Below are positions 23,848-61,628 of a DNA stretch of 64,000 bases, one piece after another. The stretch comes from Shigella phage SP18. Under the pieces are notes generated by a model that was not told the origin of the DNA, did not search any database, and saw only the letters and a program-made list of their open reading frames with translations. The position numbers and the translations under genes are program-made. The DNA lies in sequence record GQ981382. One strand, 5' to 3'. Position 1 is the first letter of the stretch; every line of letters starts with the position of its first letter.

Positions 23848-23888
23848 TTTATTCTCCAGTGCTTTATTGTGTAACTCAGTATGGAATC

Positions 23889-23917
23889 ATTATGCACTGG
23901 CCCAACCCTGTTGTACA
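23889..23917 (-). promoter_or_regulatory. early sigma70-type promoter (TGTACA, 17 bp, CATAAT) with conserved leader CCATACTGAGTTACAC
   Basis: -35/-10 spacing of 17 bp; the 30-mer is identical to the one at 57743-57772; preceded by a terminator hairpin. Confidence 0.6.
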
Positions 23918-23926
23918 CCCTTTATG

Positions 23927-23952
23927 AAAAAAAAAGACTCCCGAAGGAGTCA
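23927..23952 (-). terminator. terminator hairpin (GACTCCTTCGGGAGTC) plus T9
   Basis: GC stem with TTCG loop followed by a long T-run on the minus strand. Confidence 0.75.
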
Positions 23953-24300
23953 TTTGATAATTGTTTTATAGGTCACTTCAGCTGTGTAGAAGTTTTTGGC
24001 TTTCATTACAATAGCTTCACCCTTTGGATTCGCCTCAATCCATTCTCTGGCACGTTTATGTGCTTCCAGTTCAGTAAGCAAACCAGAGCGTTGACAGCCA
24101 CGGTCTTGTGTACCAGCTTCACTTAAGAAAGCGACTAGATAAATTGCGTCGTCATACGGTTTAGCAGGTGGGATGTACACCGGAGGACTCGGTGGGACAT
24201 ACGCAGCAGGATGATGACCCGGAATTTCATTGTATGGACCAGGCGCGGCATAAGATGCTCCACGTGGTGTAGTAAACGTGTGATTGTATCTATCGTTCAT
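23950..24300 (-). CDS. hypothetical proline-rich protein
   Basis: 116 aa ORF; N-terminal half Pro/Tyr rich. Confidence 0.5.
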   Translation of the reverse strand: MNDRYNHTFTTPRGASYAAPGPYNEIPGHHPAAYVPPSPPVYIPPAKPYDDAIYLVAFLSEAGTQDRGCQRSGLLTELEAHKRAREWIEANPKGEAIVMKAKNFYTAEVTYKTIIK

Positions 24301-24312
24301 AATATTTTCCTA

Positions 24313-24339
24313 GAAAAAAGGGACTCCGAAGAGTCCCTG
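24313..24339 (-). terminator. terminator hairpin (AGGGACTCTTCGGAGTCCCT) plus T6
   Basis: Perfect stem-loop with T-run on the minus strand, downstream of the small basic ORF. Confidence 0.7.
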
Positions 24340-24342
24340 AAC

Positions 24343-24504
24343 TTATGCTTTCGGCTTACCAAAGCAAGCTGCATCGGCACGCAATACCGCACGAGCACGA
24401 GCCTGAAGTTTATCAGTTACCTGATTGATTCGCTTGTTGGACGCACGCTTGTAACCAGCGCGTTTGGAGGAGCCATCAACAACTTTAACTTCTTTCTTAG
24501 CCAT
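24343..24504 (-). CDS. small basic protein (~53 aa), 30.9-like position
   Basis: Hand-translated MAKKEVKVVDGSSKRAGYKRASNKRINQ...; below the track cutoff; weak Shine-Dalgarno; coordinates approximate. Confidence 0.4.
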   Translation of the reverse strand: MAKKEVKVVDGSSKRAGYKRASNKRINQVTDKLQARARAVLRADAACFGKPKA

Positions 24505-24901
24505 ATTAAATTCTCTTTAAAATAGAATGCAGGACTTATTGGCATTGCCTGCGCAAGCCCTCGAAGGGAACATTAGGTTTCGGATATTTAACGACAGGAT
24601 AACCATAAACCTCGTCATCATACCTTATAGCTCTTATCTGTTGCACACCGTTAGCTTAAAGGTTCCGGGTTCGATTTCTCGAGGATAAGATATATACTGA
24701 TGGATATATAGGCCTTGAGGCGTACTCCCGATTGGCCATCACCTCGGGGTAGCATGCACTTGCCGCTATAAGAATAACATTCAAGAGGTACACCATAAAA
24801 TTGCCGAGGTCTTAAAACTATAATGATTCGCAAATCATTAATCAGACAATTCGACGGCTCCTCGATTTTAGCTCACACTAAGGCAGTGAATCTCCAATAA
24901 A

Positions 24902-25156
24902 TTACTTCAGAGTTACGACAAAATGGCGAACAGCTTTACGGGCAGCAGATGCCAGCGGCTTAGCAAATTTCAGTTCATCTTTTGCTTCGAGCACTGCACG
25001 AAGGTCGGTTTGAATCGGGTTAAGATGTTTGAAATACTGCAGAATTTCCAGTGCTTCGGCTTCAACATCAATAGATGCGCCGTAGTTTTCGTGACCGTTA
25101 TTCCATGCAGTGCGTTGCAGTTCAAGAGCGTGTTGTAATTGTTTGTTTAAAGACAT
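24902..25156 (-). CDS. rIII: rIII lysis inhibition accessory protein
   Basis: MSLNKQLQHALELQRTAWNNGHENYGASIDVEAEALEIL... matches T4 rIII from the internal ATG (about 84 aa). Confidence 0.8.
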   Translation of the reverse strand: MSLNKQLQHALELQRTAWNNGHENYGASIDVEAEALEILQYFKHLNPIQTDLRAVLEAKDELKFAKPLASAARKAVRHFVVTLK

Positions 25157-25313
25157 TTTAGAAGCCTCAATATGAGGTGAATATTTGGTGGACACGTTCT
25201 TCTGAATTTCACTTCCTTTCGGCAAGTCTCTCAGTTGTAGTCCACCGTTTAGGATTCTCCGGTTAACTAACTGGTCCGGCAGCCAATCCATATTATTATT
25301 TATAACGCTAATT

Positions 25314-25661
25314 TTACTTATAAAGACAAGGAACAGCTTTATAATGACAGGTCACAAATTTCTGCTTAACTTCTTTAGCCTGCTTAAGTCCCAGAGCAAC
25401 CAGAGGATGTGGAACGTTTGCAATCTTGCCAACCGGAAGAGGAGTCAAATCACCCACTTCACAGAAACCTTCGGGAACATCCGGACCAACCGAAAATACT
25501 TCGCACATCTCTGGGATTTCACCCTGATGGAGTTTTCCGATAACGATACCTGATGCCGTAGTTTCTTCATCACCAGCTTGCTTTGGCTCAGAAACCAAAA
25601 TAATATATTCACCTACTGCTTTAATTGGTAATTCCATATTTAATCCATGTTGTTTGGTCAT
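25314..25661 (-). CDS. 31: co-chaperonin gp31 (GroES-like)
   Basis: [22 protein letters not shown]...[20 protein letters not shown]...[30 protein letters not shown] matches T4 gp31; start could be 25661 or 25637. Confidence 0.9.
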
Positions 25662-25692
25662 GTATTAATAATAACACGCACCGTTTGAAGCA

Positions 25693-25992
25693 TTAAAGGA
25701 CAAGCAGAGTCTCGGTCTGCAGACCATTCACGGAAATCAATTTATTGAAACAGAATGAACGCCATTCATTAAGCTTGGTATCAAATACCCGGATATAGCT
25801 AACTGGTTCTTTATTGGCTTCTGGTCCAGGGGTCTGGATTTCTTTATGCGGCAGCAGGTCCAGGTCACGAGTACAAGTCATACGGCGGATGCTACCATCT
25901 GCTTTTTCAAACAGAACTTCGTGAAAACCAACAGACAAAATAGTCTTGACTTTTTCACGGAGACGAATTGTTTCTTGTTCAGTTAAAATCAT
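25693..25992 (-). CDS. hypothetical protein (31.1-like position)
   Basis: 99 aa ORF. Confidence 0.55.
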   Translation of the reverse strand: MILTEQETIRLREKVKTILSVGFHEVLFEKADGSIRRMTCTRDLDLLPHKEIQTPGPEANKEPVSYIRVFDTKLNEWRSFCFNKLISVNGLQTETLLVL

Positions 25993-25994
25993 AA

Positions 25995-26228
25995 TTATTC
26001 CAAAACAGTTTTAATGGTTGTTGCATTACGCTCTTTTAGAGCTCTTAATAGGCTATGGCAATTTTCAAGAATAGGCACCGTTTTATAGTTCATTTCGGGG
26101 CGAACCCACTCGGATTTATAGTACGATTTCCAACGAGAGAAAAAGTACTTTTTATATTCTACTGAATAGGCTACCAGGTTTTCACCTTTTGAGTTCAGAC
26201 CTGAAAACTTAACTAGACGAAATTTCAT
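25995..26228 (-). CDS. hypothetical protein (31.2-like position)
   Basis: 77 aa ORF; its stop abuts the next gene's start. Confidence 0.5.
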   Translation of the reverse strand: MKFRLVKFSGLNSKGENLVAYSVEYKKYFFSRWKSYYKSEWVRPEMNYKTVPILENCHSLLRALKERNATTIKTVLE

Positions 26229-26809
26229 TATTCACCACAAAATTCGTTAATGTTTTCCCAGTTCAATTTGTCTAGACTACGCTTAGGCACATTGAACACC
26301 TCAATTCCCGCGTTCTTCAGGATATCATCCCAACCAGGAATATTCTTATCATACGTTTCACAGTAAACCAATTTCTTGATTCCTGATTGAGAAATTGCCT
26401 TTGCACAATCAGGGCAAGGAGAAAGCGTCACATACATAGTAGCGCCTTCAATTGACGAACCCATTCTGGCTGCGAACAGAATCGCATTAAGCTCGGCATG
26501 AATTTCGTTGTTCTTTGACCAGGCCGAATGAGCTTCGCGATGAGCTTTCGCCAATACAAAACGGTCAACCTGACTGAATCTCACGCATTCTGACTTATGA
26601 CCAGGGATGAGAACTGGTTTAGGTTTATTCAGTAACCAACCTTGCTCTTCCGCATGCTCGCAACAGTTAACCCCACCCGCAGGGGAACCATTATACCCTG
26701 TAGAAATAATGCGACCATTCTTTTCAATAACAGCTCCCACTTTCCAGGAGCAACATTTGGATTCTTGAGATACAAGGTATGCGATTTGCAGAACAGTAGT
26801 TGGTTTCAT
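26228..26809 (-). CDS. cd: dCMP deaminase
   Basis: 193 aa; zinc-binding HAE and PCxxC motifs (HAELNAILFAAR, SPCPDCAKAI); colinear with T4 Cd. Confidence 0.93.
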   Translation of the reverse strand: MKPTTVLQIAYLVSQESKCCSWKVGAVIEKNGRIISTGYNGSPAGGVNCCEHAEEQGWLLNKPKPVLIPGHKSECVRFSQVDRFVLAKAHREAHSAWSKNNEIHAELNAILFAARMGSSIEGATMYVTLSPCPDCAKAISQSGIKKLVYCETYDKNIPGWDDILKNAGIEVFNVPKRSLDKLNWENINEFCGE

Positions 26810-27145
26810 TTACATCACCACGAGATAATTGGTTTTAATAGTTTCAACACGATATAATTCATGTCGCAATTTAGTAATGCTCTTAACATGTGTTGTAATT
26901 ATACTATCACCATCGCTGAAGCGTTTTTTCTTATCGTCAAAAATCACCCCAAACATTCGCTCACCAATTTCTACAGGAGCTTCTGTGATAACAACCGCAT
27001 CATAATTACTTGGGTGAATACTTTTAAACAGAGCATCATTCGCAAGCGTTACTTTGATAAATGCAGCTGTCTCCGGGTCCAACTTACGATGGTCACCCAA
27101 ATCATTTTTAAGTGCTTCCTGAAAAATATCCATTAAATTCATCAT
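26810..27145 (-). CDS. hypothetical protein (cd.1-like position)
   Basis: 111 aa ORF. Confidence 0.5.
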   Translation of the reverse strand: MMNLMDIFQEALKNDLGDHRKLDPETAAFIKVTLANDALFKSIHPSNYDAVVITEAPVEIGERMFGVIFDDKKKRFSDGDSIITTHVKSITKLRHELYRVETIKTNYLVVM

Positions 27146-27387: not shown

Positions 27388-27929
27388 CAGATTGTCTCCT
27401 GTTTTACTTGTTTAATGATAGAAGCTTTTGTGATATCGCCTTTGATAATATAGCAATCTTCTGCAGTACCACGGTTTAACAGACGCTCTGCTTCGCCTTC
27501 CGCTCGCTCTTTTGACACATGACGAGAGTTAATCTCAATCTTGCCATTTTTAACCACAAGCAATTTCCAAACTGATGCAAGTTTCACTGGCACAGGTTCA
27601 ACTTCTGGCTTAACACCAACTTCTGCCCGGATGAAATAATCAAATTCATCAGACAATGGACCAGCAGAAACAAACATTGCTCCATGATGCCTGTTTTCTG
27701 CGCCAGATATTTTTGCCAAATCCACAAAATCATTTTCATCAATCAAACGTATCTCACAAACTTTTCTTCCACCGCTCGCGGTATCAGGTACAATTTTCAC
27801 TTCAAACGGAGTCATACCGATGTATTTGGCAATTTGGTAATTAGCTGCCCAGCCGCCGGCAATAAACTGTTTTTTGGCATTTTCAGATACGAATTTGTAA
27901 AACTTGCCTTCTTCAAAGAAATTACTCAT
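27387..27929 (-). CDS. hypothetical protein, member of the GKFY..KKQFIAG paralog family
   Basis: 180 aa; N-terminus EGKFYKFVSENAKKQFIAGGW resembles the ORFs at 40047 and 40478. Confidence 0.55.
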   Translation of the reverse strand: MSNFFEEGKFYKFVSENAKKQFIAGGWAANYQIAKYIGMTPFEVKIVPDTASGGRKVCEIRLIDENDFVDLAKISGAENRHHGAMFVSAGPLSDEFDYFIRAEVGVKPEVEPVPVKLASVWKLLVVKNGKIEINSRHVSKERAEGEAERLLNRGTAEDCYIIKGDITKASIIKQVKQETI

Positions 27930-27989
27930 TTTGTTTTCCTCATGTGTTGATGAAATTCATTATACACCATCCGTGGTGAAAGTAAACAC

Positions 27990-28268
27990 TTAAATTGCTT
28001 CGACAACTACCGTTTGTTTCTGGAAGTCCATCTTGCATGAAATAGCCAAAATGTGGTTATCAATTTTAAATGGAACAATTGCAAATGCTGCACCAGGCGT
28101 GAGTTGAACAGTGATTGCATCAACTGCATCCGGGAACATGATTTCCAGAATAGCAGACAAACGGCCATGCACTTTTAGTTCAGTCGACACGTCGACGCTT
28201 TCGTATAGATAATCAGATACAATCTGACTAAAAACTACTTTAACAATTTCAGAATATGTAGGAAACAT
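27990..28268 (-). CDS. hypothetical protein (cd.4-like position)
   Basis: 92 aa ORF. Confidence 0.5.
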   Translation of the reverse strand: MFPTYSEIVKVVFSQIVSDYLYESVDVSTELKVHGRLSAILEIMFPDAVDAITVQLTPGAAFAIVPFKIDNHILAISCKMDFQKQTVVVEAI

Positions 28269-28314
28269 TTCTTTTCTCGCTTAGTTATTAGGGTATCCAA
28301 AGGACCTAGACCCC

Positions 28315-28555: not shown

Positions 28556-28757
28556 AATGTTCTTCCAAGAAGGCCAAGAGTTCTGGAGCGGATTTAAAGA
28601 TACCGCCATCGACCTTGTCTTCATCTTTATAGTCCATTACATCCAGACCAATACGTCCATCTGTTAAAGGCCATACGCCGAAGAAAAAGCATTTACGTTT
28701 TTCAATTTCTTCGATTGTACGAAAAATCTTTTCGATATTATTCATAGGGTTCCACAT
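28548..28757 (-). CDS. hypothetical protein
   Basis: About 69 aa from the internal ATG (MWNPMNNIEK...). Confidence 0.45.
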   Translation of the reverse strand: MWNPMNNIEKIFRTIEEIEKRKCFFFGVWPLTDGRIGLDVMDYKDEDKVDGGIFKSAPELLAFLEEHYV

Positions 28758-28771
28758 CTCCACTACTTGAG

Positions 28772-28779
28772 TATAAATA
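28772..28779 (+). promoter_or_regulatory. late promoter TATAAATA upstream of the second HNH endonuclease gene
   Basis: gagTATAAATAtagtatatcaccaAAGAGGAcatacaATG; exact late consensus and Shine-Dalgarno. Confidence 0.6.
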
Positions 28780-28805
28780 TAGTATATCACCAAAGAGGAC
28801 ATACA

Positions 28806-30667
<1,862 letters not shown>

Positions 30668-30701
30668 AATAATTTCCTCAAATTTTATAATCCGTGGGAG
30701 C

Positions 30702-30730
30702 ATTATACTCTGCTCCCATAAGTTTGTACA
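30702..30730 (-). promoter_or_regulatory. early sigma70-type promoter (TGTACA, 17 bp, TATAAT); the -10 sits in the loop of a GGGAGC/GCTCCC hairpin
   Basis: Minus strand reads gtGTACAAacttatgggagcagagTATAATgctccc. Confidence 0.55.
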
Positions 30731-30834
30731 CTACTTTCCAAAAATACCATTTATACACATGCTAAGCACGATTCCAAAACAAAAGCATGTAAAGCCAAAC
30801 AGAATGACATCCGACCCATCGATACAAGACTCAA

Positions 30835-31982: not shown

Positions 31983-32216
31983 TTAGTAGCGGTTGTAACC
32001 TCTAGGACCAAAAGAGTTGGCACCCAGGCGTTCATCTTTCTTTTTGGCTCTTGCTCTAAACCCAGAATCACCTGTTTGAGCTTTCAGTTCTTTTAACAAT
32101 TTGGCCTTCAGGTCAGTAATGAAACCAATCCGGCGGTCTCCCTTGTAGACATAGATTCCGTCATTACTGTCACCATATGCCTGTGTAACTCTTTCATTTG
32201 TAATTAAGTTTAACAT
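31983..32216 (-). CDS. small protein homologous to the N-terminus of the Alc-like gene (partial tandem duplication) with a basic tail
   Basis: YGDSNDGIYVYKGDRRIGFITDLKAKL versus YGDRHDGIYVYKGSKNVGFLTDLRKKL; own GAGGA Shine-Dalgarno and promoter cassette. Confidence 0.55.
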   Translation of the reverse strand: MLNLITNERVTQAYGDSNDGIYVYKGDRRIGFITDLKAKLLKELKAQTGDSGFRARAKKKDERLGANSFGPRGYNRY

Positions 32217-32248
32217 GTTTTAGTCCTCATCAGTAGTTGATGGAACCA

Positions 32249-32276
32249 TTATGTATAGAAAGAAGGGGCTTGTACA
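32249..32276 (-). promoter_or_regulatory. early promoter cassette (TGTACA inside a GGGG/CCCC hairpin, 16 bp, CATAAT) with leader CCATCAACTACTGAT
   Basis: Overlaps the terminator-like hairpin after rnlA. Confidence 0.5.
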
Positions 32277-32286
32277 CCCCTTTTTA

Positions 32287-35035: not shown

Positions 35036-35073
35036 TTTATTTCCTCAATAGCTCATCCATGAGCATAATTATA

Positions 35074-37329: not shown

Positions 37330-37459
37330 GTTTTCCTCTGTTATAAAATGGGGTCATGCTTATAATAACACATGACCCTGAAGCGGAATCGTATTTATAG
37401 AAGGAAGTTAAGCCCAACCATTACGACCAAAAATAAAATGCCAGCAATTTGAATATTCA

Positions 37460-39473: not shown

Positions 39474-39713
39474 TCACGCTTTCTTAGCAACTTTCCAGTC
39501 AGCTTTAAATTGGTCAACGTCAGAGTGATGAATCCAGAAACCAGATGAGCTACCATCTTCATAAAGAGGACAACCATCACACTCATCTTTCCAACCCATC
39601 GCGCATAAAGTTTCTTCAGCTTTTTCCAGAGCTTCTGGATTGTTACCCTGGATTGTGAAGTACCATTTGCCTTTAACTTCTGAATCTTTGATGCTCTCAC
39701 GTTGTAATTTCAT
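39474..39713 (-). CDS. hypothetical protein (frd.3-like)
   Basis: 79 aa ORF with GGAGAATAAAATG start context. Confidence 0.5.
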   Translation of the reverse strand: MKLQRESIKDSEVKGKWYFTIQGNNPEALEKAEETLCAMGWKDECDGCPLYEDGSSSGFWIHHSDVDQFKADWKVAKKA

Positions 39714-39754
39714 TTTATTCTCCAGGGTTTTAGTTGTTAACTCAGTATGGGACC

Positions 39755-39783
39755 ATTATGTCATAGCCCCATTTGGTTGTACA
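39755..39783 (-). promoter_or_regulatory. early sigma70-type promoter (TGTACA, 17 bp, CATAAT) with leader CCATACTGAGTTAACA
   Basis: Same cassette architecture as at 23889 and 57755. Confidence 0.55.
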
Positions 39784-39790
39784 CTACTTT

Positions 39791-40057
39791 TTAAATTTTA
39801 TCAAGCCATTTGCCAAGTTTAATCATTTCCTTGGTGGCTTTTTCCATACTTCTGAACTTAACTAATAAAGGATGAGTATCAACACCCATAACAAGATTGG
39901 TTGCAAGACTGTGCTCACCCACAAGCCACAATGAGTATGTTTGAACATCGAGACCATAATTTCTGTCTTTATGTAAACGTACACCCATTACTTCAAATTG
40001 TTCGCTTGCTTTTTCTACTGCATCCAGGAAATCATCTTTAGTCATGTTAGACCTCAA
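39791..40057 (-). CDS. hypothetical protein
   Basis: 88 aa ORF. Confidence 0.45.
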   Translation of the reverse strand: MRSNMTKDDFLDAVEKASEQFEVMGVRLHKDRNYGLDVQTYSLWLVGEHSLATNLVMGVDTHPLLVKFRSMEKATKEMIKLGKWLDKI

Positions 40058-40415
40058 AAGTTGCTTTAATCAAGGCAATAACTTCCGCGGCATTTTTATA
40101 ATTTACCTGCACATGAATGGTTTGGGTATCAACATCAGGAGCATCACCATCAACTTCCAGGAAGTGACAGAATTCCCATTCAGCGAGTTCAAAGTACTCA
40201 TCAACATCACCCATACTATTCAGGATGGTGCCATCTTTCATTTCAACTTTTTCAACAAAATAATCACCTTCAATATAACACATATCCAGGACTTTGAAGG
40301 AATTGCCATGCTGTTCCATTAACTTGACCATGCACGAATTATCATCAGGACTACCAGCGATGAATTGTTTTTTAGCAGCAGGGTCTAATACGTAAAATTT
40401 ACCAGTTTCCATCAT
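40047..40415 (-). CDS. hypothetical acidic protein, GKFY..KKQFIAG family
   Basis: 122 aa; paralogous to the ORF at 40478 (DEYFELAEWEF versus DDYFELSEEEF). Confidence 0.55.
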   Translation of the reverse strand: MMETGKFYVLDPAAKKQFIAGSPDDNSCMVKLMEQHGNSFKVLDMCYIEGDYFVEKVEMKDGTILNSMGDVDEYFELAEWEFCHFLEVDGDAPDVDTQTIHVQVNYKNAAEVIALIKATFEV

Positions 40416-40477
40416 TTTATTTTCCTCATGTAGTTGATAGGTCTATAATAACATAATCATAGACCCGTTGTAAACTG

Positions 40478-40840
40478 CTATTTGAAAGCTTTTTGTAGAA
40501 GTTCAATGATTTGGTCGACGTTATTAGCATCCACAACACAATTAATAGAAACCGCCCCCGAAGGTGTTTTTGTATAATTGGAGTATTCACGGAAGCAATA
40601 AAACTCTTCTTCACTAAGTTCAAAATAATCATCACCCATGCCATCATCATTATAGATTGCACCATTAGCACAAATGATTTCGGTTACATAATCATAGCCG
40701 TCTGCACTTGATATTGATTTAACTTCAAACCAATCACCATTTTCTTGGATGATGTCGACCATACTAGCATTCGATGAACTAATATCAATGAAAGATTTAA
40801 TACGATGTGGATTGAACTCATATTTTTTGCCGATTTCCAT
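40478..40840 (-). CDS. hypothetical acidic protein, paralog of 40047-40415
   Basis: 120 aa; shared motifs with the adjacent gene. Confidence 0.55.
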   Translation of the reverse strand: MEIGKKYEFNPHRIKSFIDISSSNASMVDIIQENGDWFEVKSISSADGYDYVTEIICANGAIYNDDGMGDDYFELSEEEFYCFREYSNYTKTPSGAVSINCVVDANNVDQIIELLQKAFK

Positions 40841-40879
40841 TTTTTATTTCCTCAGTTGTTATCAGTAGTTGATGGAATC

Positions 40880-40908
40880 ATTATGCCTTAGCTCAAAGGA
40901 CTTGTACA
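40880..40908 (-). promoter_or_regulatory. early sigma70-type promoter (TGTACA, 17 bp, CATAAT) with leader CCATCAACTACTGAT
   Basis: Directly downstream of the gene 32 terminator. Confidence 0.55.
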
Positions 40909-40924
40909 CTACTTTTTGAAAATA

Positions 40925-40950
40925 AAAAAGGGACCCGAAGGTCCCCCTTA
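40925..40950 (-). terminator. terminator hairpin (GGGACCTTCGGGTCCC) plus T6 after gene 32
   Basis: Perfect stem with TTCG loop and T-run on the minus strand. Confidence 0.75.
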
Positions 40951-41913: not shown

Positions 41914-42552
41914 TTAATTATACTTCAAAGTGATTGAAGCGATAAACTTTTGAAATTCAGAATCAAGATGGGGATTCCATCCTAATTTGAATTTATTTAT
42001 AATGGAAATACCGGTCGTGTGTGTACACGGTAAACCAGTTTCTCTTGCCATAATAACTGGACCAAGTCTGGAAGTTCTATGCGGTCCTATATACCAGTCA
42101 TAATATATTCCAGCATTTAACCAAACTAAATGAGCACCTTTAGCTATTGTATTAGGATGTTCCCAAGGCAATAAACCTTTAAGGTGAGAATTTAATTTCA
42201 TATTTATTTTATGTGATTCTGATTTTGGTTTACCTTTTAATGAAGACTTAAAGGTTCCACGAGCACTCGCCTTATTGAAAAACAATGGCGATTTAACCAC
42301 ATTATAGTGTTGATGGTAAAACTCTTCTTCTGACAACACATCGTCACACACATGCAGAATTTTAACGGTTGGTTTTTCAGACAATGCCTCAATAAAACGA
42401 GATTGTTTGCATGAAGACCAGTATTCTTTATTATGTGAATCAATTATAACACCATTTTCAAAAGCACAATTATGCTTTGACCCAATGTAAAAATAAGGAG
42501 GCGTTTTATTTTTCAGACGAGTTTCAAATGTAAACCAATATACAACATTCAA
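41914..42552 (-). CDS. GIY-YIG homing endonuclease (SegG-like) between genes 32 and 59
   Basis: 212 aa; N-terminal VVYWFTFETRLKNKTPPYFYIGSK GIY-(x)-YIG motif; same intergenic position as T4 segG. Confidence 0.7.
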   Translation of the reverse strand: MNVVYWFTFETRLKNKTPPYFYIGSKHNCAFENGVIIDSHNKEYWSSCKQSRFIEALSEKPTVKILHVCDDVLSEEEFYHQHYNVVKSPLFFNKASARGTFKSSLKGKPKSESHKINMKLNSHLKGLLPWEHPNTIAKGAHLVWLNAGIYYDWYIGPHRTSRLGPVIMARETGLPCTHTTGISIINKFKLGWNPHLDSEFQKFIASITLKYN

Positions 42553-43202
42553 AACTTACACCCTTTAACAGTCTCGATGAACAATTTACGGGCTTCAAGA
42601 GAATCGATATTTAAGATTTTCTTATAAGCATTTAGTTTAGTTGAATACTTTTCCCAAACCAAGTCGTTAGTCTGTTCATCATGTTGGTCTATTATACCTA
42701 AAAATGAATCAAGCAAACAAAACGTTTCAAATGAAATAACATTCGATTGGAGAAGTTTGAAAATATAACTTGTATTCACTTTAGTATTATACTCGAAAAT
42801 CTCTTGAAGCGATTTGACTTCGACTTTCTTACTGAAGTAATAGATATTCTTTATATCATCTTCGTATACTTGTTTAATTCTTTTAAGTCTGCCAATGTAT
42901 TCACGATAAAATATCAGAGCATCAGCATCACTTATATCGCCTATCCATGCATCCTGGTTTGCAACCAGGTTTGACATGAATATTAACGTTAATTCTTTAA
43001 GAGTGTACTTATCGCTAAGCTTTTCGAAAAAATACTTATCGCGACGTTTTTGATAAGCACTATCGGAGATTCGCATGGTCCAGTTATATTTGATAATATC
43101 ATAACGACCCGAAAAATGCTGTTTGATGGATAAGTACAGTTGGTATACTGATTTACCATTTATGTATCGGTTGTTATTTGGAGGCATGCGAATCGTAATC
43201 AT
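42549..43202 (-). CDS. 59: helicase loader gp59
   Basis: 217 aa; GKSVY.LYL.IKQH..G.YD.IKYNW.MR.SD.AYQKRRDKYFF.KLS.KY.LKEL colinear with T4 gp59. Confidence 0.93.
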   Translation of the reverse strand: MITIRMPPNNNRYINGKSVYQLYLSIKQHFSGRYDIIKYNWTMRISDSAYQKRRDKYFFEKLSDKYTLKELTLIFMSNLVANQDAWIGDISDADALIFYREYIGRLKRIKQVYEDDIKNIYYFSKKVEVKSLQEIFEYNTKVNTSYIFKLLQSNVISFETFCLLDSFLGIIDQHDEQTNDLVWEKYSTKLNAYKKILNIDSLEARKLFIETVKGCKF

Positions 43203-44696: not shown

Positions 44697-44754
44697 ATGA
44701 ACCTCTGTTCAATTAGTTGACTCGATTATATTAGCATAAAATTTTTAAAGCAAT

Positions 44755-55719: not shown

Positions 55720-56207
55720 TAGTAAAGGTCCTCTGAATAAAGTTCTTTCTCACTGCCACCACGTTCAATGCGCACCTGATTTGCATAAGTCGCAATAATC
55801 ATTGCTTCTTCGCGGGTCCAGTAATTGCTGTATTGGTCAATAAATCCTTGGTCGTCACCACAAACATGGTCTGACACGAGTTTATCACTTACCTGGTCAA
55901 GCACTTCTGCCATATCCTTGGAATAATGTCTGGCGCCGGGAATAACCAGAGTCCCACCATCTTTTAACTTAAAGCGGTTGGCAGCACACACAATCCGTCG
56001 CTGATATTTTTCATTGTTGTTCCAATGAGCAATCTGCCAACAGATTTCCGGGACTTCTTCTAAAACATCCTCTTCTGTATATTCGGTGTAATCACCATAT
56101 GCCTGTAGTTTAGCAGCGAGGCTTTCGGGAGTCTCACGCGAAAGAGCTTTATCTAATAAAGCCATACGGTCTTTAAAGGATAATTCTTTACCTTTTAATG
56201 GATTCAT
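55719..56207 (-). CDS. hypothetical protein
   Basis: 162 aa ORF; overlapping stop/start with neighbours. Confidence 0.55.
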
Positions 56208-56551
56208 TTGATAATCACCTTATAACCATTATATTTCACGAATTCATGAATTTTATCACCAATACCAATCAACTCGCCTTTGTCAGAAGAAGTCAATTTG
56301 ATATCAACTGTTTGGCATACACCATACGAAGTTATGGATACTTTTTCTATAGTAATAAGCTCAAGAAATCGCAATAGCTGCATACCAAACTCAAGAGGAA
56401 CATTATCAATCTGGAGATGAAGGTTATAAATTACCTTAATACCATTCACCAAGGCACAGCGCTCATCCCAAGCGTTACGTTGCTCTTCAATCAATTTAAG
56501 GGAATGGCCTTCACCATCCCAGTTTAGTTCCATAGGAATCATTTGAACCAA
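56204..56551 (-). CDS. hypothetical protein
   Basis: 115 aa ORF. Confidence 0.5.
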
Positions 56552-57487: not shown

Positions 57488-57489
57488 AA

Positions 57490-57717
57490 TTATCCCTTAA
57501 TAGATTTCATATAATTTGATGCATACGATTGTACCACAGTACGTTTCATATGGGAAGTAGAAACAATCACATCAATCGCTTGTTTACGTTCTTCTTTGGA
57601 GTTTGCCAGTTTGAACATGTCAAAGTAGTAATAGCAAGCTTCTTTGTTAGATTTGAATTTAGCGTTGATGTATTCTTGACCTTCATTCTGTTGTGCAGTA
57701 AACATTTTATTCTCCAA
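57490..57717 (-). CDS. hypothetical protein (motA.1-like)
   Basis: 75 aa ORF; GGAGAATAAAATG start context; downstream of an early promoter cassette. Confidence 0.5.
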   Translation of the reverse strand: MENKMFTAQQNEGQEYINAKFKSNKEACYYYFDMFKLANSKEERKQAIDVIVSTSHMKRTVVQSYASNYMKSIKG

Positions 57718-57754
57718 AGTTTTTGTGATTCATTGTGTAACTCAGTATGGAATC

Positions 57755-57783
57755 ATTATGCAGCGGGTCAAGGGGATTGTACA
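57755..57783 (-). promoter_or_regulatory. early sigma70-type promoter (TGTACA, 17 bp, CATAAT) with leader CCATACTGAGTTACAC
   Basis: 30-mer identical to the copy at 23863-23892. Confidence 0.6.
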
Positions 57784-57797
57784 CTACTTTTTTAAAA

Positions 57798-57826
57798 TAA
57801 AAAAAAAAGGACCCCGAAGGGTCCTA
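57798..57826 (-). terminator. terminator hairpin (AGGACCCTTCGGGGTCCT) plus T10
   Basis: Strong GC stem followed by a 10 nt T-run on the minus strand. Confidence 0.8.
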
Positions 57827-59250: not shown

Positions 59251-59254
59251 ATTT

Positions 59255-59557
59255 TTACCATATCAGTGAATGTACTGCCATTATAGCATCAGAAATAAAA
59301 AGCACAACCTGCACTAATGCAAACATAACTCCATAATACAGCGCTACCAATAAGGTAGCAAGGGCTAACGAGTAGCCCAAGATTTTCTTAATCATTTATT
59401 AACCGCTGATTCAAGAAATTTAACTAAGGCATCCAGTACAAACCATATGCAAATAAATCCTGCAAAAAAAGTAACTTGGAACCCATACACCTGTAGCAAA
59501 AAGAGCCACAGCAACGATAACAGCTACGAGCCAGATAAAAGTAAAAACTGATTGCAT
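59255..59557 (-). other. two tandem small hydrophobic ORFs (~46 aa and ~45 aa; ac/stp-like position between gene 52 and ndd)
   Basis: Hand-translated MIKKILGYSLALATLLVALYYG... (about 59255-59395) and MQSVFTFIWLVAVIVAVALFATG... (about 59420-59557, GAGGAAA Shine-Dalgarno); coordinates approximate. Confidence 0.4.
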
Positions 59558-59646
59558 ATTTTCCTCAAGGGCGTCCAAAGACGCCAGTTAATTTCAGATT
59601 ATGACGATGCCATTGCATCACGTGTTCATTATGGAAATTACTCATA

Positions 59647-60096
59647 TTAATAGCTCTGCAGAATGAATTTAAAGTTATCAGCAAGCATGCGATTCATTTC
59701 TGAAAGGGTTTGGCAATCAGAACTATGTGAGCGAGTGAACGCCATCGCAATTTGACCTTTACCATAACCAGTTGTCAGAGGTTTCATTTTAGAAACCGGG
59801 ACAAACAGGACTTCATAGATAACACCATTGTTCGCCATTGTGCGAGACAGTTGTGAACGCTGTTTGCGGATGTGACTTAATACAGTGTCAAACCCTTGTT
59901 GTGAACGTTGGTTACCAACATAAAAACGTGCAGCAACAATACGTGATTCACCTTCACCTTTGACCACGAAATAAAAACCTGGTTGGGTAATAGCTTCTTT
60001 AGTTGGACGGCCCGCAACATAATTACCATTATGGATGTAAGCAACAGTGGTAGCGCCAGCATTCAGTACGTCACGACGGGTCATGTAAGTAGACAT
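59647..60096 (-). CDS. ndd: nucleoid disruption protein Ndd
   Basis: 149 aa; [76 protein letters not shown] matches T4 Ndd. Confidence 0.92.
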
Positions 60097-60140
60097 ATTA
60101 ATTTCCTCAATAAGTTAAAGTTTTGTGCTCCAGTGGGGTC

Positions 60141-60169
60141 ATTATACTCTGACCCCAAGAGTTTGTACA
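60141..60169 (-). promoter_or_regulatory. early sigma70-type promoter (TGTACA, 17 bp, TATAAT); the -10 lies in the loop of a GGGGTCA/TGACCCC hairpin
   Basis: Same architecture as at 30702 and 60548. Confidence 0.55.
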
Positions 60170-60508
60170 CTATTTTTGAAGTTGTTCTAAAATAAATCCA
60201 GAAGTATAAAGGCTTGCATTATACAGGCGGTCAAGAGACAGTGAATCCAATCCATAAGCTTCACGAATTGCATTAATAACACTTTCATAACTTGTATAAT
60301 AAACATCACCGCGGTCCATAGTCATGCGGAACTTAATAAATTTGTAGAAACCAGTTTCAGGGTCCTGATAGAATGCAAATTCTGCAGACATCAAATTTTT
60401 AAGGTTAACAGCTTTTGTACCACCTGAATAACTTAAATCAAATGCTTCTGATATGCTAATCTGTTTAAAGAACATAATGTTGCGATTACCAAAAAAGATT
60501 TTAGACAT
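60170..60508 (-). CDS. hypothetical protein (ndd.1-like position)
   Basis: 112 aa ORF with GAGGAAA Shine-Dalgarno. Confidence 0.55.
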   Translation of the reverse strand: MSKIFFGNRNIMFFKQISISEAFDLSYSGGTKAVNLKNLMSAEFAFYQDPETGFYKFIKFRMTMDRGDVYYTSYESVINAIREAYGLDSLSLDRLYNASLYTSGFILEQLQK

Positions 60509-60547
60509 AATGATTTCCTCAGTTAAATTTTATTATCCACTGGGAAC

Positions 60548-60576
60548 ATTATACTCTGCTCCCAAGAGTTTGTACA
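60548..60576 (-). promoter_or_regulatory. early sigma70-type promoter (TGTACA, 17 bp, TATAAT), hairpin-embedded variant
   Basis: Near-identical to the cassette at 60141. Confidence 0.55.
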
Positions 60577-60822
60577 CTATTCTACATCAACTGCGTCATC
60601 CCACAAGTCAACTTCTTCTGATGATTCCATCAGTTCATCAACTGTGAAGCACTCAGTATTATTTTCAATTGCAAAACGCTTCTGATAAAAAGGATAATCC
60701 AAACAGTTTTCAGTGCGCACAGGACGTTCACTATTATCCATTAAAGGCGAAATGCGAATCAGTTGTTGACCATTACCCAGGACAAATTTTTCACCAACTA
60801 CAATGTCTTTAAAAAGTTTCAT
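60577..60822 (-). CDS. hypothetical protein
   Basis: 81 aa ORF; ATG overlaps the upstream stop (ATGA); GGAG Shine-Dalgarno. Confidence 0.5.
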   Translation of the reverse strand: MKLFKDIVVGEKFVLGNGQQLIRISPLMDNSERPVRTENCLDYPFYQKRFAIENNTECFTVDELMESSEEVDLWDDAVDVE

Positions 60823-61025
60823 TGCTTAGCTCCATTCCAAATTACATCAACAACAGACTTCAAACCATTATCCTGGATTTGTGTGAATACTTCAGCAGCA
60901 ATCCAGACCTGGAAACCAATCATTGCAATGGCACCAATGAAAATCAGGATAATCATTGCCACAATAAACTTGAACATAAAGTCAAAGCGGCGATTGGATT
61001 TCTGAAAGTGTGAATTGTAATTCAT
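60819..61025 (-). CDS. small membrane protein
   Basis: About 68 aa from the ATG with a GAGGA Shine-Dalgarno; hydrophobic segment FIVAMIILIFIGAIAMIGF. Confidence 0.5.
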   Translation of the reverse strand: MNYNSHFQKSNRRFDFMFKFIVAMIILIFIGAIAMIGFQVWIAAEVFTQIQDNGLKSVVDVIWNGAKQ

Positions 61026-61178
61026 AATATTATCCTCAAAAGAAATAGTTAAAGTAAACACGCACATGGTCAATCATAAAAACAATTGGGAAAATGCTCA
61101 GGACAACAAACAGTACAAACATGTTCCAAATGGCTTTAAGTAACTTTTTCATAATCATCTCCAGTAGTTGATAGGTTC

Positions 61179-61206
61179 ATTATACTACAACCACCGGAGA
61201 TGTACA
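61179..61206 (-). promoter_or_regulatory. early sigma70-type promoter (TGTACA, 16 bp, TATAAT) with CCATCAACTACTGG leader variant
   Basis: Upstream of a short hydrophobic ORF (~40 aa, not annotated). Confidence 0.45.
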
Positions 61207-61297
61207 CTCTTTTACGCAAGTTTCAATAATAATAAACTAAAACAAACACAAATTACTGGGATGCACAACATCCAGATAAAACACCAGGTTCTGCTGC

Positions 61298-61561
61298 TCA
61301 CAATTCCACCTCAATGATTTCAAGTTGATTTTCAACAATTGCATGCTGAATACATTTATACACATCAATGGACCAGGAATTATTATATTGCCCATCAATC
61401 AAACGTTGAAGGTCTTCGCGAGTTGACAGATATGGTTGGTCTGATTCCCATTTTGATAAAAACATTGTGGTGTATGTATCGCCTTCGCCGGTGACAAAGG
61501 TCGCGGATGCAACAAATTCCCCAGTAACTTTATGCTTGACATAGTAAAATTTAAATTTCAT
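61298..61561 (-). CDS. hypothetical protein
   Basis: 87 aa ORF with GGAGAATAAAATG start context, downstream of a promoter cassette. Confidence 0.55.
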   Translation of the reverse strand: MKFKFYYVKHKVTGEFVASATFVTGEGDTYTTMFLSKWESDQPYLSTREDLQRLIDGQYNNSWSIDVYKCIQHAIVENQLEIIEVEL

Positions 61562-61599
61562 TTTATTCTCCAGTCTGTTTGGTAACTCAGTATGAAGCC

Positions 61600-61628
61600 A
61601 TTATGCACTGACTCCATACTGATGTACA
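61600..61628 (-). promoter_or_regulatory. early sigma70-type promoter (TGTACA, 17 bp, CATAAT) with leader CTTCATACTGAGTTACC
   Basis: Same cassette family as at 23889. Confidence 0.55.

Follow-up and report, generated by a model that had tools for sequence, protein, structure and literature searches.

Promoter-early stem-loops (PeSLs) of T4-type phages have been described in RB49 and phi1 (Arbiol et al. 2010, PMC2839356) and in T4/PST and KVP40/nt-1 (Comeau et al. 2014, PMC4122927). In these composite elements the stop codon of the upstream gene lies in an AT-rich tract, sigma-70-type -35 and -10 boxes are spaced by ~17 bp, a stem-loop is placed upstream of the boxes or between them, or else overlaps the -35 or the -10, and the 3' end carries an SD and an ATG. 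Copies stand between small early genes, all in the same orientation; crossovers between them map either to the stretch from the -10 to the ATG or to the region of the stem-loop, and the neighbouring small ORFs vary between close relatives. The cassettes described here share all these features. They differ in the -35, which is TGTACA (about two thirds of the copies) or TTTACA, compared with TTGACA in RB49 and TTTACW in T4/PST, in the upstream stem-loops, which are GC-rich terminators with a TTCG tetraloop instead of polyG/polyC, and in having leaders that form discrete families with strongly conserved first ~12 nucleotides.

Morganella phage vB_MmoM_MP1 (Gualtarvirus, KX078569), of another genus and host, has near-identical annotated putative promoters of the form aaaagt(a/g)GTGTACA-N17-(C/T)ATAAT-ga/ta-tcccATACTGAGTTAACAAA...GGAG...ATG. 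One of its copies also has the CTCAGTATG/CATACTGAG repeat around the -10. Of the three copies seen, two have GGAGTC as SD in place of the RegB-consensus GGAGAATAAAA.

The window, which is the whole 64-kb stretch of DNA that was analysed, belongs to a T4-like phage of the genus Gaprivervirus and is 93-97% identical to phages of the VR7 group. We think it likely, with a probability of roughly 85%, that its cassettes are sigma-70 early (immediate-early) promoters organised as PeSL-type composite cassettes.

Candidate early promoters in the window

Scanning the window for TGTACA-N15-18-YATAAT finds ten sites, every one of them on the minus strand, where dinucleotide shuffles give a mean of 0.09 and a maximum of 1. 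This bears out an earlier note on this DNA that had reported TGTACA, a 16-17 bp spacer and (C/T)ATAAT as a minus-strand repeat. Nine of the ten -10 positions listed there are right, and 32249 should read 32248. Five more cassettes with GTTTAC or TTTACA in place of TGTACA bring the total to 15 (Table 1, where the low coordinate of the -10 serves below as the name of each cassette) and extend the set beyond the interval 23863-61628 to which it had been confined. The same motif, GTTTAC variants included, finds 37 cassettes across the VR7 genome, and an independent sigma-70 scan scores five of the cassettes at 9-10 out of 12.

Table 1. Cassettes of the window, all on the minus strand; the last column describes the stem-loop and, where given, other observations
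Downstream gene	Leader family	Extent	-35	-10	Leader, SD, start codon	Stem-loop and remarks
Gene 24.3 homologue		2375..2499	TTTACA 2430-2435	TAAGAT 2407-2412	ATG 2375-2377	terminator hairpin GGGACCCGAAGGTCCC + T-run upstream; weakest member
alt.-3 homologue		15140..15215	GTTTACA 15197-15202	TACAAT 15174-15179	leader ..CACATGAGGAAAACAAAATG	weak hairpin between boxes
Gene 30.7		23405..23485	TTTACT 23468-23473	TATTAT 23446-23451	SD GGAGAATAAAA	12-bp inverted repeat TTGGTACAGGTT/AACCTGTACCAA, -10 in loop; -18.7 kcal/mol, z -4.2; same hairpin in T4 counterpart (T4 129896)
Gene 30.8	A	23845..23951	TGTACA 23912-23917	23889-23894	leader gattccATACTGAGTTACACAA; SD GGAGAATAAAA; ATG 23845-23847	terminator GACTCC-TTCG-GGAGTC + T9, 23927-23951
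VR7 ORF232c homologue		27927..27998	GTTTACT	TATAAT 27959-27964		hairpin CACCA-CGGA-TGGTG between boxes; position of T4 early promoter Pe133295
	C	30665..30742	TGTACA 30725-30730	30702-30707	ATG 30665-30667	hairpin GGGAGCA/TGCTCCC, -10 in loop; z -3.1
Small alc-adjacent ORF	B	32214..32282	TGTACA	32248-32253		hairpin AAGGGG-TGTACAAG-CCCCTT, 32263-32282, palindromic -35 in loop, then CTTTCT; z -3.3
frd.1	A	39711..39795	TGTACA 39778-39783	39755-39760	RegB-consensus SD	hairpin ATGGGGCTAT/ATGGTCCCAT around -10
frd.2	B-like	40413..40486	TTTACA 40469-40474	TATTAT 40445-40450		hairpin GGGTCTAT.../...ATAGACC around -10
ORF 40478-40840	B	40838..40947	TGTACA 40903-40908	40880-40885		terminator GGGACC-TTCG-GGTCCC + T-run, ~40919-40947
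ORF277c-motA operon	A	57703..57825	TGTACA 57778-57783	57755-57760	RegB-consensus SD; ATG 57703-57705	terminator AGGACCC-TTCG-GGGTCCT + T10, 57798-57825
ndd	C	60094..60181	TGTACA 60164-60169	60141-60146		hairpin TGGGGTCA/TGACCCCA, -10 in loop; z -3.1
ORF283c homologue	C	60506..60588	TGTACA 60571-60576	60548-60553		hairpin GGGAGCA/TGTTCCC (one G-U pair) around -10
ndd.4 homologue	B	61150..61218	TGTACA 61201-61206	61179-61184		16-nt spacer; predicted 18-pair hairpin (14 contiguous pairs, 2 G-U, by ungapped matching); -24.8 kcal/mol, z -5.5
ORF287c-like gene	A	61559..61640	TGTACA 61623-61628	61600-61605	RegB-consensus SD	14-pair hairpin TCAGTATGGAGTCA/TGGCTTCATACTGA around -10; -23.1 kcal/mol, z -4.1

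The layout consists of an A-tract, a G-TGTACA -35, the -10, a C-rich discriminator, a conserved transcript start and an SD-ATG. Gene order in the window is T4-like, each cassette is on the strand that encodes homologues of early genes, and the genes downstream include homologues of the T4 motA operon, ndd, frd.1/.2 and 30.7/30.8. T4 has counterpart promoters at the matching positions of 30.7, motA, ndd.4 and cd.2/cd.3 (the last annotated Pe133295), the one before motA being an early promoter with the ATCAACTACTGA leader. The proposal that these are early promoters is supported by this layout, by the early genes downstream and by the T4 promoters at several matching positions.

The published consensus of T4 early promoters has GTTTAC at -36..-31, an A-rich stretch at -40..-44 and a C-rich one at -3..-1 (PMC1524935). 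In common with the T4 promoters (Pe; PMC2988021, PMC1524935), the cassettes have the UP-like A-tract, G at -36, xTAC at -33..-31, a -10 with A-11 and T-7, the C-rich -3..-1, the ATCAACTACTGA leader, hairpins around the -10 and the same early genes downstream. They differ in the G at -34, where T4 and the sigma-70 consensus have T, in the absence of a TGn extended -10 from the cassettes, and in the family-A leader, which does not occur in T4. At one and the same promoter, strains can differ in position -34: P30.8 and the 30702 promoter have G in the window and T in VR7. TGTACA agrees with the sigma-70 -35 consensus at only four of six positions, and this, together with the missing TGn, means that promoter strength probably depends on the UP-like tract.

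By analogy with the literature on T4, RB49 and phi1, unmodified host sigma-70 RNA polymerase would bind the cassettes right after infection through the A-tract at about -41 to -45, the G-TGTACA -35 and the (C/T)ATAAT located 16-17 bp downstream. Transcription would start, on the same analogy, at the A ~7 nt past the -10, in the context cc-A-TACTGAG, cc-A-TCAACTAC or ccc-A-C. We give almost no credence to the idea that the cassettes are instead MotA/AsiA-dependent middle promoters or gp55 late promoters, even though MotA and AsiA are encoded by this phage group and middle promoters use a sigma-70 -10 too. The MotA box (TGCTTYA at -30) is present in no cassette, its seven matches with a -10 in the window lying elsewhere (e.g., 1893, 7565, 25668 and 44728), nor does any cassette contain TATAAATA, and the -35 hexamer stands at the canonical 16-17-bp spacing.

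Stem-loops and terminators

Every cassette has a stem-loop, which in some precedes the promoter and in others spans the -35, sits in the spacer or encloses the -10 in its loop. The picture of terminator-promoter-gene units put forward earlier, which corresponds to the published PeSL concept (PMC2839356, PMC4122927), applies to three of the ten TGTACA cassettes (23889, 40880 and 57755), which have a canonical hairpin and T-run upstream; the hairpin of 32248 wraps the -35, and the rest have no such terminator. Eight cassettes of the window fold with the -10 in the loop. Their centroid hairpins lie between about -12.5 and -25 kcal/mol, and their whole-stretch z values run from -1.6 to -5.5; five of the eight go beyond -3, and 60548 has the weakest value. 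Spacer and discriminator are more complementary to each other than cross-pairings are, in VR7 (p ~2e-4), the window (p ~2e-3 to 2e-4) and T4 (p = 3e-4), and the same test finds no excess in control regions further downstream. Hairpins with the -10 in the loop are not followed by a U-run and therefore are not canonical intrinsic terminators.

PeSLs were defined with the same stem-loop positions, and termination has been demonstrated for just one of their stem-loops, that of another phage (PMC2839356). By analogy with such systems, the stem-loop of a cassette would form only in transcripts arriving from upstream and would attenuate or insulate read-through, some being classical terminators ahead of the promoter, while others surround the -35, occupy the spacer or enclose the -10 in the loop.

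It has to be considered that the inverted repeats around the -10 or -35 might act as DNA, by forming a cruciform or hairpin that a recombination protein or a structure-specific one recognises, or by aiding promoter melting, and not as RNA attenuators. The authors of the PeSL work speculated that the stem-loop is the target of a DNA-binding recombination protein, one of their mapped crossovers lies in the loop of a PeSL stem-loop (PMC2839356), and the arms vary in sequence yet stay complementary. We find this unlikely. Mismatches in the stems, read on the sense strand, are mostly G-U (10) and not A-C (3; p = 0.046), an excess that points to coding-strand RNA. In VR7 and T4 together, a hairpin with the -10 in its loop never accompanies an upstream terminator (0/10 vs 25/54, Fisher p = 0.005), and this mutual exclusion suggests that both do the same job. 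Moreover, at 61179, as at several T4 promoters (that of regB among them), the SD itself forms the 3' arm.

Read as an RNA element, the predicted hairpin of 61179 pairs the spacer with the leader and covers the SD GGAG and the first ATG, so that it may also hide the SD. It resembles the T4 sequestration hairpins with an internal promoter (genes e, soc, 49 and I-TevI; PMC3014915), in which an arm upstream of the -10 likewise pairs with the SD and AUG; on that model, only a transcript starting inside the hairpin would be translatable. The known T4 cases hold late or middle promoters and delay expression, whereas the internal promoter of 61179 is of the early type, and most cassettes of the window leave the SD uncovered.

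Leader families, conservation and predicted RegB sites

Instead of the two leader families of the earlier note, at least three can be distinguished among the ten TGTACA cassettes, with leaders ccATACTGAGTTAC (family A), ccATCAACTACTG (family B) and cccAC(t)GGA..AAAA.TTTAAC..GAGGAAAT.AT(T)ATG (family C). The element GGAGAATAAAATG, which was said to follow the leaders in general, is found in the four family-A cassettes and in the GTTTAC-type 30.7 promoter, and the other TGTACA cassettes lack it. The identical 30-mer TTGTGTAACTCAGTATGGAATCATTATGCA is a real duplication, but its two copies lie at 23867-23896 and 57733-57762, and not at 23863-23892 and 57743-57772, which are wrong by 4-10 nt. Folding prediction finds no RNA structure in the leaders of their own. 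The short unstructured leader ends in a strong SD-ATG.

Between orthologous cassettes, per-site divergence is 0.005 in the -35 and in the -10, 0.010 in the first 18 nt past the -10 and 0.011 in the SD-ATG, compared with 0.025 in coding sequence, 0.036 in the spacer and 0.058-0.070 in the upstream region and mid-leader. It is possible, although we doubt it, that the conserved leader (discriminator plus first ~12 transcribed bases) has no function of its own and that concerted evolution alone, through repeated recombination or gene conversion between cassettes and the spread of whole cassettes by duplication, accounts for the likeness. The cassettes do recombine and move, likeness within a family extends over 60-90 nt including non-essential positions, as in the 30-mer, and 60548, which stands between two genes, has the look of an inserted copy of the 60141/30702 type. 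However, the first 18 nt past the -10 are conserved like the hexamers, whereas in these cassettes the spacer and the mid-leader evolve 3-7 times faster, a contrast over short distances that homogenisation would not produce. Besides, the start sequences span genera: ATCAACTAC is also common in T4 and recurs in Klebsiella T4-likes, ATACTGAGTTAMCAAA occurs in Morganella phage MP1, where ATACTGAGTTAC recurs with GTGTACA, and the ATCAACTACTGA leader is shared by at least 10 of the T4 promoters found by the same pattern.

In T4 early mRNAs, strong cleavage by RegB/S1 follows the consensus GG*AGRAYARAA (PMC3014915), and GGAGAATAAAA fits it at every position. GGAGRAYARAA has five matches in the window against 0.34 expected, all of them at cassette SDs, namely those of the 30.7 cassette and of family A. 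A regB gene was seen only in the relative VR7, its locus lying outside the window. The suggestion of shared post-transcriptional control thus finds support in these five perfect matches and in the RegB encoded by VR7. As RegB requires in T4 (PMC3014915), the leaders are predicted to be unstructured, and cleavage at the five SDs may be expected by analogy. The full predicted site is limited to family A and the 30.7 promoter, whereas families B and C have other SDs (GAGGAAAT, GGAGAT or the like).

Gene-content differences at the cassettes

Gene content at the cassettes was compared with that of four relatives, among them VR7, DK-13 and P479. In VR7, an insertion of 2.3 kb immediately precedes the 2407 promoter, and the frd.1 junction (39755) holds frd.3 and another promoter. 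In DK-13 and VR7, the 30702 cassette drives a different first gene (ORF239c), with the breakpoint at the ATG, while DK-13 and P479 have a 269-nt frd.3 insertion exactly at the SD-ATG of 40445, with a 17-nt overlap. ORF 40478-40840, which has a cassette on both sides, is missing in VR7, where cassette 40880 is fused directly to frd.2 through a crossover in the SD-ATG region. The ~60-nt promoter module 60548 is absent from VR7, and its two genes abut there. ORF 23950-24300 is flanked by two near-identical terminators.

These differences, several with crossovers inside cassettes, support the proposed role as a recombination substrate and match the published PeSL concept (PMC2839356, PMC4122927). 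Differently from that concept, breakpoints at cassettes are not in excess over those at other gene junctions in the four relatives: 8 of ~23 early-region rearrangements touch a cassette, without statistical enrichment of indels, and this is the expectation for random gene junctions because ~15 of 80 junctions carry a cassette.

The presence or absence of one cassette between otherwise colinear genomes, and the frequent homing-endonuclease genes of the region, might suggest an autonomous or miniature mobile element (MITE-like or homing-associated) in which the promoter-like sequence is incidental. We consider this very improbable, as terminal inverted repeats and target duplications are absent, orientation and register to the downstream start codon are the same in every copy, the junctions are homology-based joins within SD-ATG or terminator sequences, and the motif scan of the window finds no copies in late-gene regions.

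In our opinion, then, the early-promoter cassettes are a real but ordinary finding, since this kind of cassette has already been described in T4 relatives, where it is also a recombination point. By analogy with T4, RB49 and phi1, modules of 60-100 nt, repeated in the same orientation at intervals of a few hundred bases, would offer homology patches to the phage recombination system, and recombination between them may add, delete and swap the small genes that lie in between.

Copy number and gene context of the cassettes

The pattern TGTACA-N15-18-YATAAT is found ten times in the 64-kb window, always on the minus strand, against 0.09 matches expected (mean of dinucleotide-preserving shuffles). 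These are the sites from which an earlier note on this DNA had counted at least ten copies of a conserved cassette, and its coordinates hold, apart from 32248 in place of 32249. When the -35 box is relaxed to T[GT]TAC, five more cassettes of the same build are obtained, which gives 15 in the window (ten TGTACA-type and five TTTAC-type); the whole genome of the relative VR7 has 37. Thus, the repeats are real, far above chance and slightly more numerous than described. Each cassette, named here by the low coordinate of its -10 box, consists of an A-tract, a -35 box, a spacer, a -10 box, a leader and a Shine-Dalgarno (SD) sequence with its ATG. An identical 30-mer noticed before is indeed duplicated without mismatch, a few bases away from the positions first assigned to it, and GGAGAATAAAATG has five exact occurrences in the window. 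The leaders do form discrete families, but a side-by-side comparison of the ten sites gives three of them instead of the two originally proposed.

The window is 93–97% identical to the Escherichia phages of the VR7 group (VR7, VR20, VR25, VR26, DK-13, P479 and phage 212), which is the genus Gaprivervirus of the subfamily Tevenvirinae. Its gene order is T4-like, with alt, 30, 30.x, rIII, 31, cd, pseT, alc, rnlA, nrd, td, frd, 32, 59, 33 and rnh on the minus strand, a plus-strand block formed by 34–38 and t, and then asiA, arn, motA, 52, ndd, denB and rIIB on the minus strand again. All cassettes occupy minus-strand intergenic gaps, and their 3' end is the start codon of a T4 early-gene homologue or of a small ORF lying among such genes. 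The genes served are 24.3, alt.-3, 30.7, 30.8, the ORF after cd.3, the ORF after pseT.2, an alc-adjacent ORF, frd.1, frd.2, an extra ORF adjoining gene 32, the ORF277c-motA operon, ndd, ORF283c, ndd.4 and ORF287c. There is no cassette in the late tail-fibre block of the window, and the RefSeq record of VR7 carries no annotated promoter features.

Features of the SP18 window discussed in the text, with window coordinates (cassettes by the low coordinate of the -10 box)
Feature	Coordinates	Strand	Remarks
Cassette	2407	minus	TTTAC-type
Cassette	15174	minus	TTTAC-type
Cassette	23446	minus	TTTAC-type; position of T4 Pe 129896 (30.7)
Cassette	23889	minus	TGTACA-type, family A
Cassette	27959	minus	TTTAC-type; position of T4 Pe 133307 (annotated Pe133295, between cd.2 and cd.3)
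Cassette	30702	minus	TGTACA-type, family C
Cassette	32248	minus	TGTACA-type, family B
Cassette	39755	minus	TGTACA-type, family A
Cassette	40445	minus	TTTAC-type
Cassette	40880	minus	TGTACA-type, family B
Cassette	57755	minus	TGTACA-type, family A; position of T4 Pe 163646 (motA)
Cassette	60141	minus	TGTACA-type, family C
Cassette	60548	minus	TGTACA-type, family C
Cassette	61179	minus	TGTACA-type, family B; position of T4 Pe 166781 (ndd.4)
Cassette	61600	minus	TGTACA-type, family A
Identical 30-mer	23867-23896, 57733-57762
TTGACC/CATACT site	57744-57771	minus	within cassette 57755
MotA-box + -10 matches	1893-1918, 7565-7589, 25668-25692, 29728-29752, 44728-44752	minus	no overlap with an early cassette
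TTCG-tetraloop terminators	~23927-23951, 24305-24335		GACTCCTTCGGGAGTC and GGGACTCTTCGGAGTCCC, near-identical
ORF between these terminators	23950-24300		116 aa
ORF between cassettes 40880 and 40445	40478-40840
Crossover zones inside cassettes	40413-40429, 40435-40825, roughly 60520-60600		the last in cassette 60548
Crossover at the terminator pair	around 23950-24300
Alt gene	15207-17267
Second Alt-like ADP-ribosyltransferase gene	17277-19151	minus	624 aa
Indels not tied to cassettes	28746-29463, 35046-35065, 37339-37451, 41924-42564
Segment of the arn region	56147-56539		~320-390 nt missing from all four relatives

Promoter layout, leaders and conservation along the cassette

The layout was derived from the 37 VR7 copies (whole genome) and 27 copies found with the same pattern in T4. 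The A-tract (aAAAAgta) precedes the -35 box at about -41 to -45 with ~1 bit per position, and stop codons of the upstream gene lie in or beside it, as in cassettes 61600 and 60548. Next come a G at -36 and T-(G/T)-T-A-C-A at -35 to -30. A spacer of 16-17 bp separates these from (C/T)ATAAT, behind which lie the discriminator g-a/t-t-c-c-c, then, about 7 nt past the -10 box, an A, and a continuation that is specific to each family. In every cassette the SD-ATG is placed 29-52 nt past the -10 box, and an ORF follows.

Early promoters (Pe) of T4 present GTTTAC at -36 to -31, an A-rich stretch at -40 to -44, A at -11, T at -7 and a C-rich segment at -3 to -1 (PMC1524935; also PMC2988021). The cassettes resemble them in A at -11, T at -7, the UP-like A-tract at -40 to -44 and the C-rich -3 to -1, whereas the ten TGTACA-type copies have GTGTAC (G at -34) and not GTTTAC; as predicted T4-type early promoters they are a variant of the T4 consensus. 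About two thirds of the copies have G at -34, and GTTTAC is present in the five other window copies and in ~1/3 of the VR7 promoters. Moreover, the base at -34 varies by strain at one and the same promoter, GTGTACA in the window corresponding to GTTTACA in VR7 at the 30.8 and 30702 promoters, so the two -35 forms look functionally interchangeable. The original assignment of the cassettes to early promoters agrees with this Pe layout, with their location upstream of early-gene homologues and with the T4 Pe that occupy matching positions.

Other phage promoter classes can be set aside. A MotA-dependent middle promoter has a MotA box, (a/t)(a/t)(a/t)TGCTTtA, centred at -30 and 11-13 bp from the -10 box, and none of the seven window matches falls at a cassette. 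The late-promoter pattern TATAAATA likewise coincides with no cassette in the window. Those seven matches (TGCTTYA-N11-13-TAnnnT; 1.6 expected) are in themselves likely middle promoters, placed for instance before the rnlB/24.2 region, uvsY, gene 31 and rnh.

In the leader, family A (four copies) reads ccATACTGAGTTAC...CTGGAGAATAAAATG, family B (three copies) ccATCAACTACTG... and family C (three copies) cccAC(t)GGA..AAAA.TTTAAC..GAGGAAAT.AT(T)ATG. The initial transcribed sequences of the cassettes include ATACTGAGTTAC and ATCAACTAC. The ATCAACTACTGA start is carried by at least ten T4 early promoters, and BLAST also detects it in many Escherichia, Shigella and Klebsiella phages of the T4-like type, each genome having 1-4 copies. 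About 35 Gaprivervirus records contain the family-A start, ATACTGAGTTAMCAAA, with 9-13 copies in each genome; in Morganella phage MP1 (genus Gualtarvirus) it accompanies a GTGTACA -35 box, at sites that the MP1 authors had annotated as putative promoters on the basis of MEME. When IMG/VR was scanned for exact matches, the family-A start turned up in VR20, VR25, VR26, MP1 and a further T4-like contig of 172 kb, the other metagenomic matches in that scan being chance occurrences without promoter context. Three cassettes with a GTGTACA -35 box and a ATACTGAGTTA(A/C)CAAA start were seen at positions 55-135, 565-650 and 928-1020 of an MP1 segment (KX078569 60368-61961), one of them with a CTCAGTATG/CATACTGAG repeat around the -10 box. 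Since MP1 combines GTGTACA with the family-A start, the module is common to Gaprivervirus and Gualtarvirus; G at -34 with the ATACTGAGTTAC start is genus-specific apart from being common with MP1.

A conserved leader might be a structured cis-regulatory RNA such as a riboswitch, an attenuator or a protein-binding operator. Seven leaders folded from the predicted +1 gave 0 to -2.5 kcal/mol, with less structure than their shuffles in six of seven (z of +0.5 to +1.7, and -0.5 in the seventh), and Rfam has no match at gathering score in the whole window. Leaders that are essentially unfolded and an empty Rfam search together lead us to reject a structured RNA element.

The ribosome-binding end of the leader offers another explanation for its conservation. 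RegB is a T4 nuclease that inactivates early messages and cuts in the Shine-Dalgarno sequence. The strong intergenic RegB/S1 cleavage consensus is GG*AGRAYARAA (PMC3014915), and GGAGAATAAAA fits it at every position. GGAGRAYARAA has five exact matches in the window (0.34 expected), all of them cassette SDs, and the relative VR7 has an annotated regB (gp120), a gene that lies outside the window. The five GGAGAATAAAA SDs are therefore probable RegB targets, as judged from the base sequence. Shared post-transcriptional control, which the earlier note had suggested, finds its predicted sites here.

Divergence was measured as differences per site in the nine cassettes for which three or all four of the relatives VR7, DK-13, 212 and P479 retain both flanks. 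It is 0.005 in the -35 hexamer and likewise 0.005 in the -10 hexamer, 0.010 in the first 18 nt after the -10 box and 0.011 from SD to ATG, and then 0.025 in the first 90 nt of the gene, 0.036 in the spacer, 0.058 in the upstream 25 nt and 0.070 in the mid-leader. The leader is hence two short constrained blocks, discriminator plus initial transcribed sequence and ribosome site, with a free linker between them. Limits this sharp speak for selection on the start of the transcript, and against recombination having merely made the copies alike. Work on the initial sequences of strong phage promoters makes escape from a very tightly bound promoter the conventional candidate for what is selected.

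A bolder reading, which we consider improbable, is that the 12-18 nt of discriminator and first transcribed bases (ccATACTGAGTTAC, ccATCAACTAC) would be a promoter element in themselves, a pause/escape signal or a handle for early shut-off. It draws on start positions that are conserved among strains like the -35 and -10 hexamers, on a start common to T4, Gaprivervirus and Gualtarvirus, and on the near-consensus TTGACC 16 nt upstream of CATACT in 57755. CATACT and TATCAA resemble -10 boxes, through which sigma-70 could make the polymerase pause close to the promoter or influence its escape. The mechanism by which T4 early promoters are shut off a few minutes post infection is called unknown in reviews (PMC2988021, PMC3014915). 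As a separate observation, the TTGACC of 57755 is placed in the spacer, and the CATACT at the start of the family-A leader, so that the pair is a second, overlapping promoter-like site with a 12-nt offset. The same TTGACC is found in VR7 cassettes 162591 and 65613, and the site could represent either a tandem promoter or an element for sigma-dependent pausing.

Stem-loops around the promoter boxes

The closest known system to these predicted early promoters is PeSL, the promoter-early stem-loop cassette of T4-type phages. At the level of sequence, they have the paired boxes ~17 bp apart, the AT-rich tract with stop codons, the stem-loop, and the SD with start codon of a PeSL. For PeSL the stem-loop is described in five places (ahead of the promoter, on the -35 box, between the two boxes, on the -10 box or beyond it), the commonest being 'between the boxes' and 'overlapping the -10', with G-T stem pairs marked (PMC2839356). 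A stem-loop is present in all 15 window cassettes: four are upstream terminators, one is over the -35, two are between the boxes (both weak) and eight are over the -10. The single -35 case, 32248, has AAGGGG-TGTACAAG-CCCCTT with the palindromic -35 in the loop, then CTTTCT. Among the ten cassettes first reported, 23889, 40880 and 57755 are preceded by a GC-rich TTCG-tetraloop hairpin with a T-run; the terminator-promoter-gene organisation described in the earlier note is right, with a canonical terminator before only these three of the ten.

In the eight remaining hairpins the spacer is complementary to the sequence just past the -10 box, which places the -10 in the loop. Their centroid energies are about -12.5 to -25 kcal/mol. 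Their whole-stretch z values range from -1.6 to -5.5; five of the eight lie beyond -3, and 60548 is the weakest. In a permutation test self-pairings beat cross-pairings (p about 2e-4 in VR7, about 2e-3 to 2e-4 in the window, and 3e-4 in T4), and control segments further downstream had no excess of complementarity. The arms remain complementary although they vary from promoter to promoter, and also between a VR7 promoter and its T4 counterpart; stem mismatches are G-U in 10 cases and A-C in 3. None of ten copies with an upstream terminator has a -10-loop hairpin, versus 25 of 54 otherwise (VR7 and T4, p = 0.005). We had considered this inverted repeat as a new feature, an idea abandoned because stem-loops over the -10 or -35 already belong to the PeSL definition (PMC2839356); the statistics stand.

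The 5' arm is not transcribed from the cassette's own promoter, so the -10-loop hairpin would form only in RNA arriving from upstream. Its predicted role, which fits these data, would be to attenuate read-through from upstream or to insulate against it, and terminator-like activity has been demonstrated for one such PeSL stem-loop (PMC2839356). At 61179 and at several T4 promoters, including that of regB, the 3' arm is the SD itself. Hiding the ribosome site in long transcripts is a known T4 device (PMC3014915), which the hairpin of 61179 resembles. At the regB promoter of T4 (MT984581, ~62756), spacer TTTCCTCTTGACTG is complementary to leader CAGTTAAGAGGAGA, hence upstream read-through transcripts would carry the regB SD paired; T4 promoters 65365, 8175 and 53902 have the same spacer-leader complementarity.

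Recombination at the cassettes and significance

The earlier note had also proposed the cassettes as a recombination substrate for small early genes and asked for a comparison of gene content at their junctions. Chained BLAST alignments of the window with the same four relatives, with the junctions then read, reveal gains and losses of ORFs at several cassettes. VR7 lacks the ORF between cassettes 40880 and 40445, a 40880-type cassette being fused straight to frd.2; the join is within GAGGAAA(A)TAAAA(A)ATGGAAA, a crossover from one cassette to another within the SD-ATG region, where the mapped joins of PeSL mini-circles also lie (PMC2839356). In DK-13 and P479, the SD-ATG of 40445 is the exact insertion point of frd.3 and a further promoter, the overlap being 17 nt. 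The ~60-nt promoter module 60548 is missing from VR7, where ndd.1 and ORF283c abut. Cassette 30702 drives ORF238c in the window; in DK-13 and VR7 ORF239c comes first and ORF238c second, and the sequences part at the ATG. The 116-aa ORF between the TTCG terminators is shared with phage 212 and absent from VR7, P479 and DK-13; VR7 and P479 have a single terminator. DK-13 is also without 30.7 and 30.8 (window 23094-24314).

Full-length orthologous context is lacking in at least two of the four relatives for 5 of 14 cassettes. Crossovers do occur inside cassettes, but the counts do not support a preference for them. Against the four relatives, 8 of ~23 early-region events touch a cassette, which exceeds the per-base expectation and not that per gene junction: each event has two ends and about 15 of 80 gene junctions carry a cassette, so that this number is what chance at gene junctions would give. 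Breakpoint enrichment is consequently not claimed here; the crossovers illustrate the proposed recombination role but do not establish it statistically.

Many other rearrangements involve homing-endonuclease genes or plain gene boundaries. DK-13 and P479 have homing-endonuclease or small-ORF insertions between nrdA and nrdB and between nrdA and td, a SegG-like gene beside gene 32 is absent from 212 and P479, and a plus-strand MobE-like ORF adjoins pseT as an indel not tied to a cassette. Of the four relatives only phage 212 shares the second Alt-like gene, whose product is 32% identical to the adjacent Alt over its full length (E = 3e-86); VR7, DK-13 and P479 lack it. The inserted DNA starts precisely at the SD/ATG, and is preceded by a terminator and a TATAAATA sequence of late-promoter type near 19165-19200.

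The known framework is unchanged by these cassettes. For annotation, they provide an early-transcription map of the region with 15 predicted promoters, likely starts (23882, 57748 and 61593 among them), immediate-early genes and five probable RegB targets, a set missing from the RefSeq annotation of the type phage VR7. Constraint is now resolved to three parts, namely both hexamers, the 18 nt that follow the -10, and the SD-ATG, and does not extend to the spacer, the mid-leader or the upstream sequence. We think that G at -34 and the conserved transcript start are testable handles on the strength and turn-off of T4-type early promoters. Moreover, the PeSL picture is extended to another genus of therapeutic coliphages.
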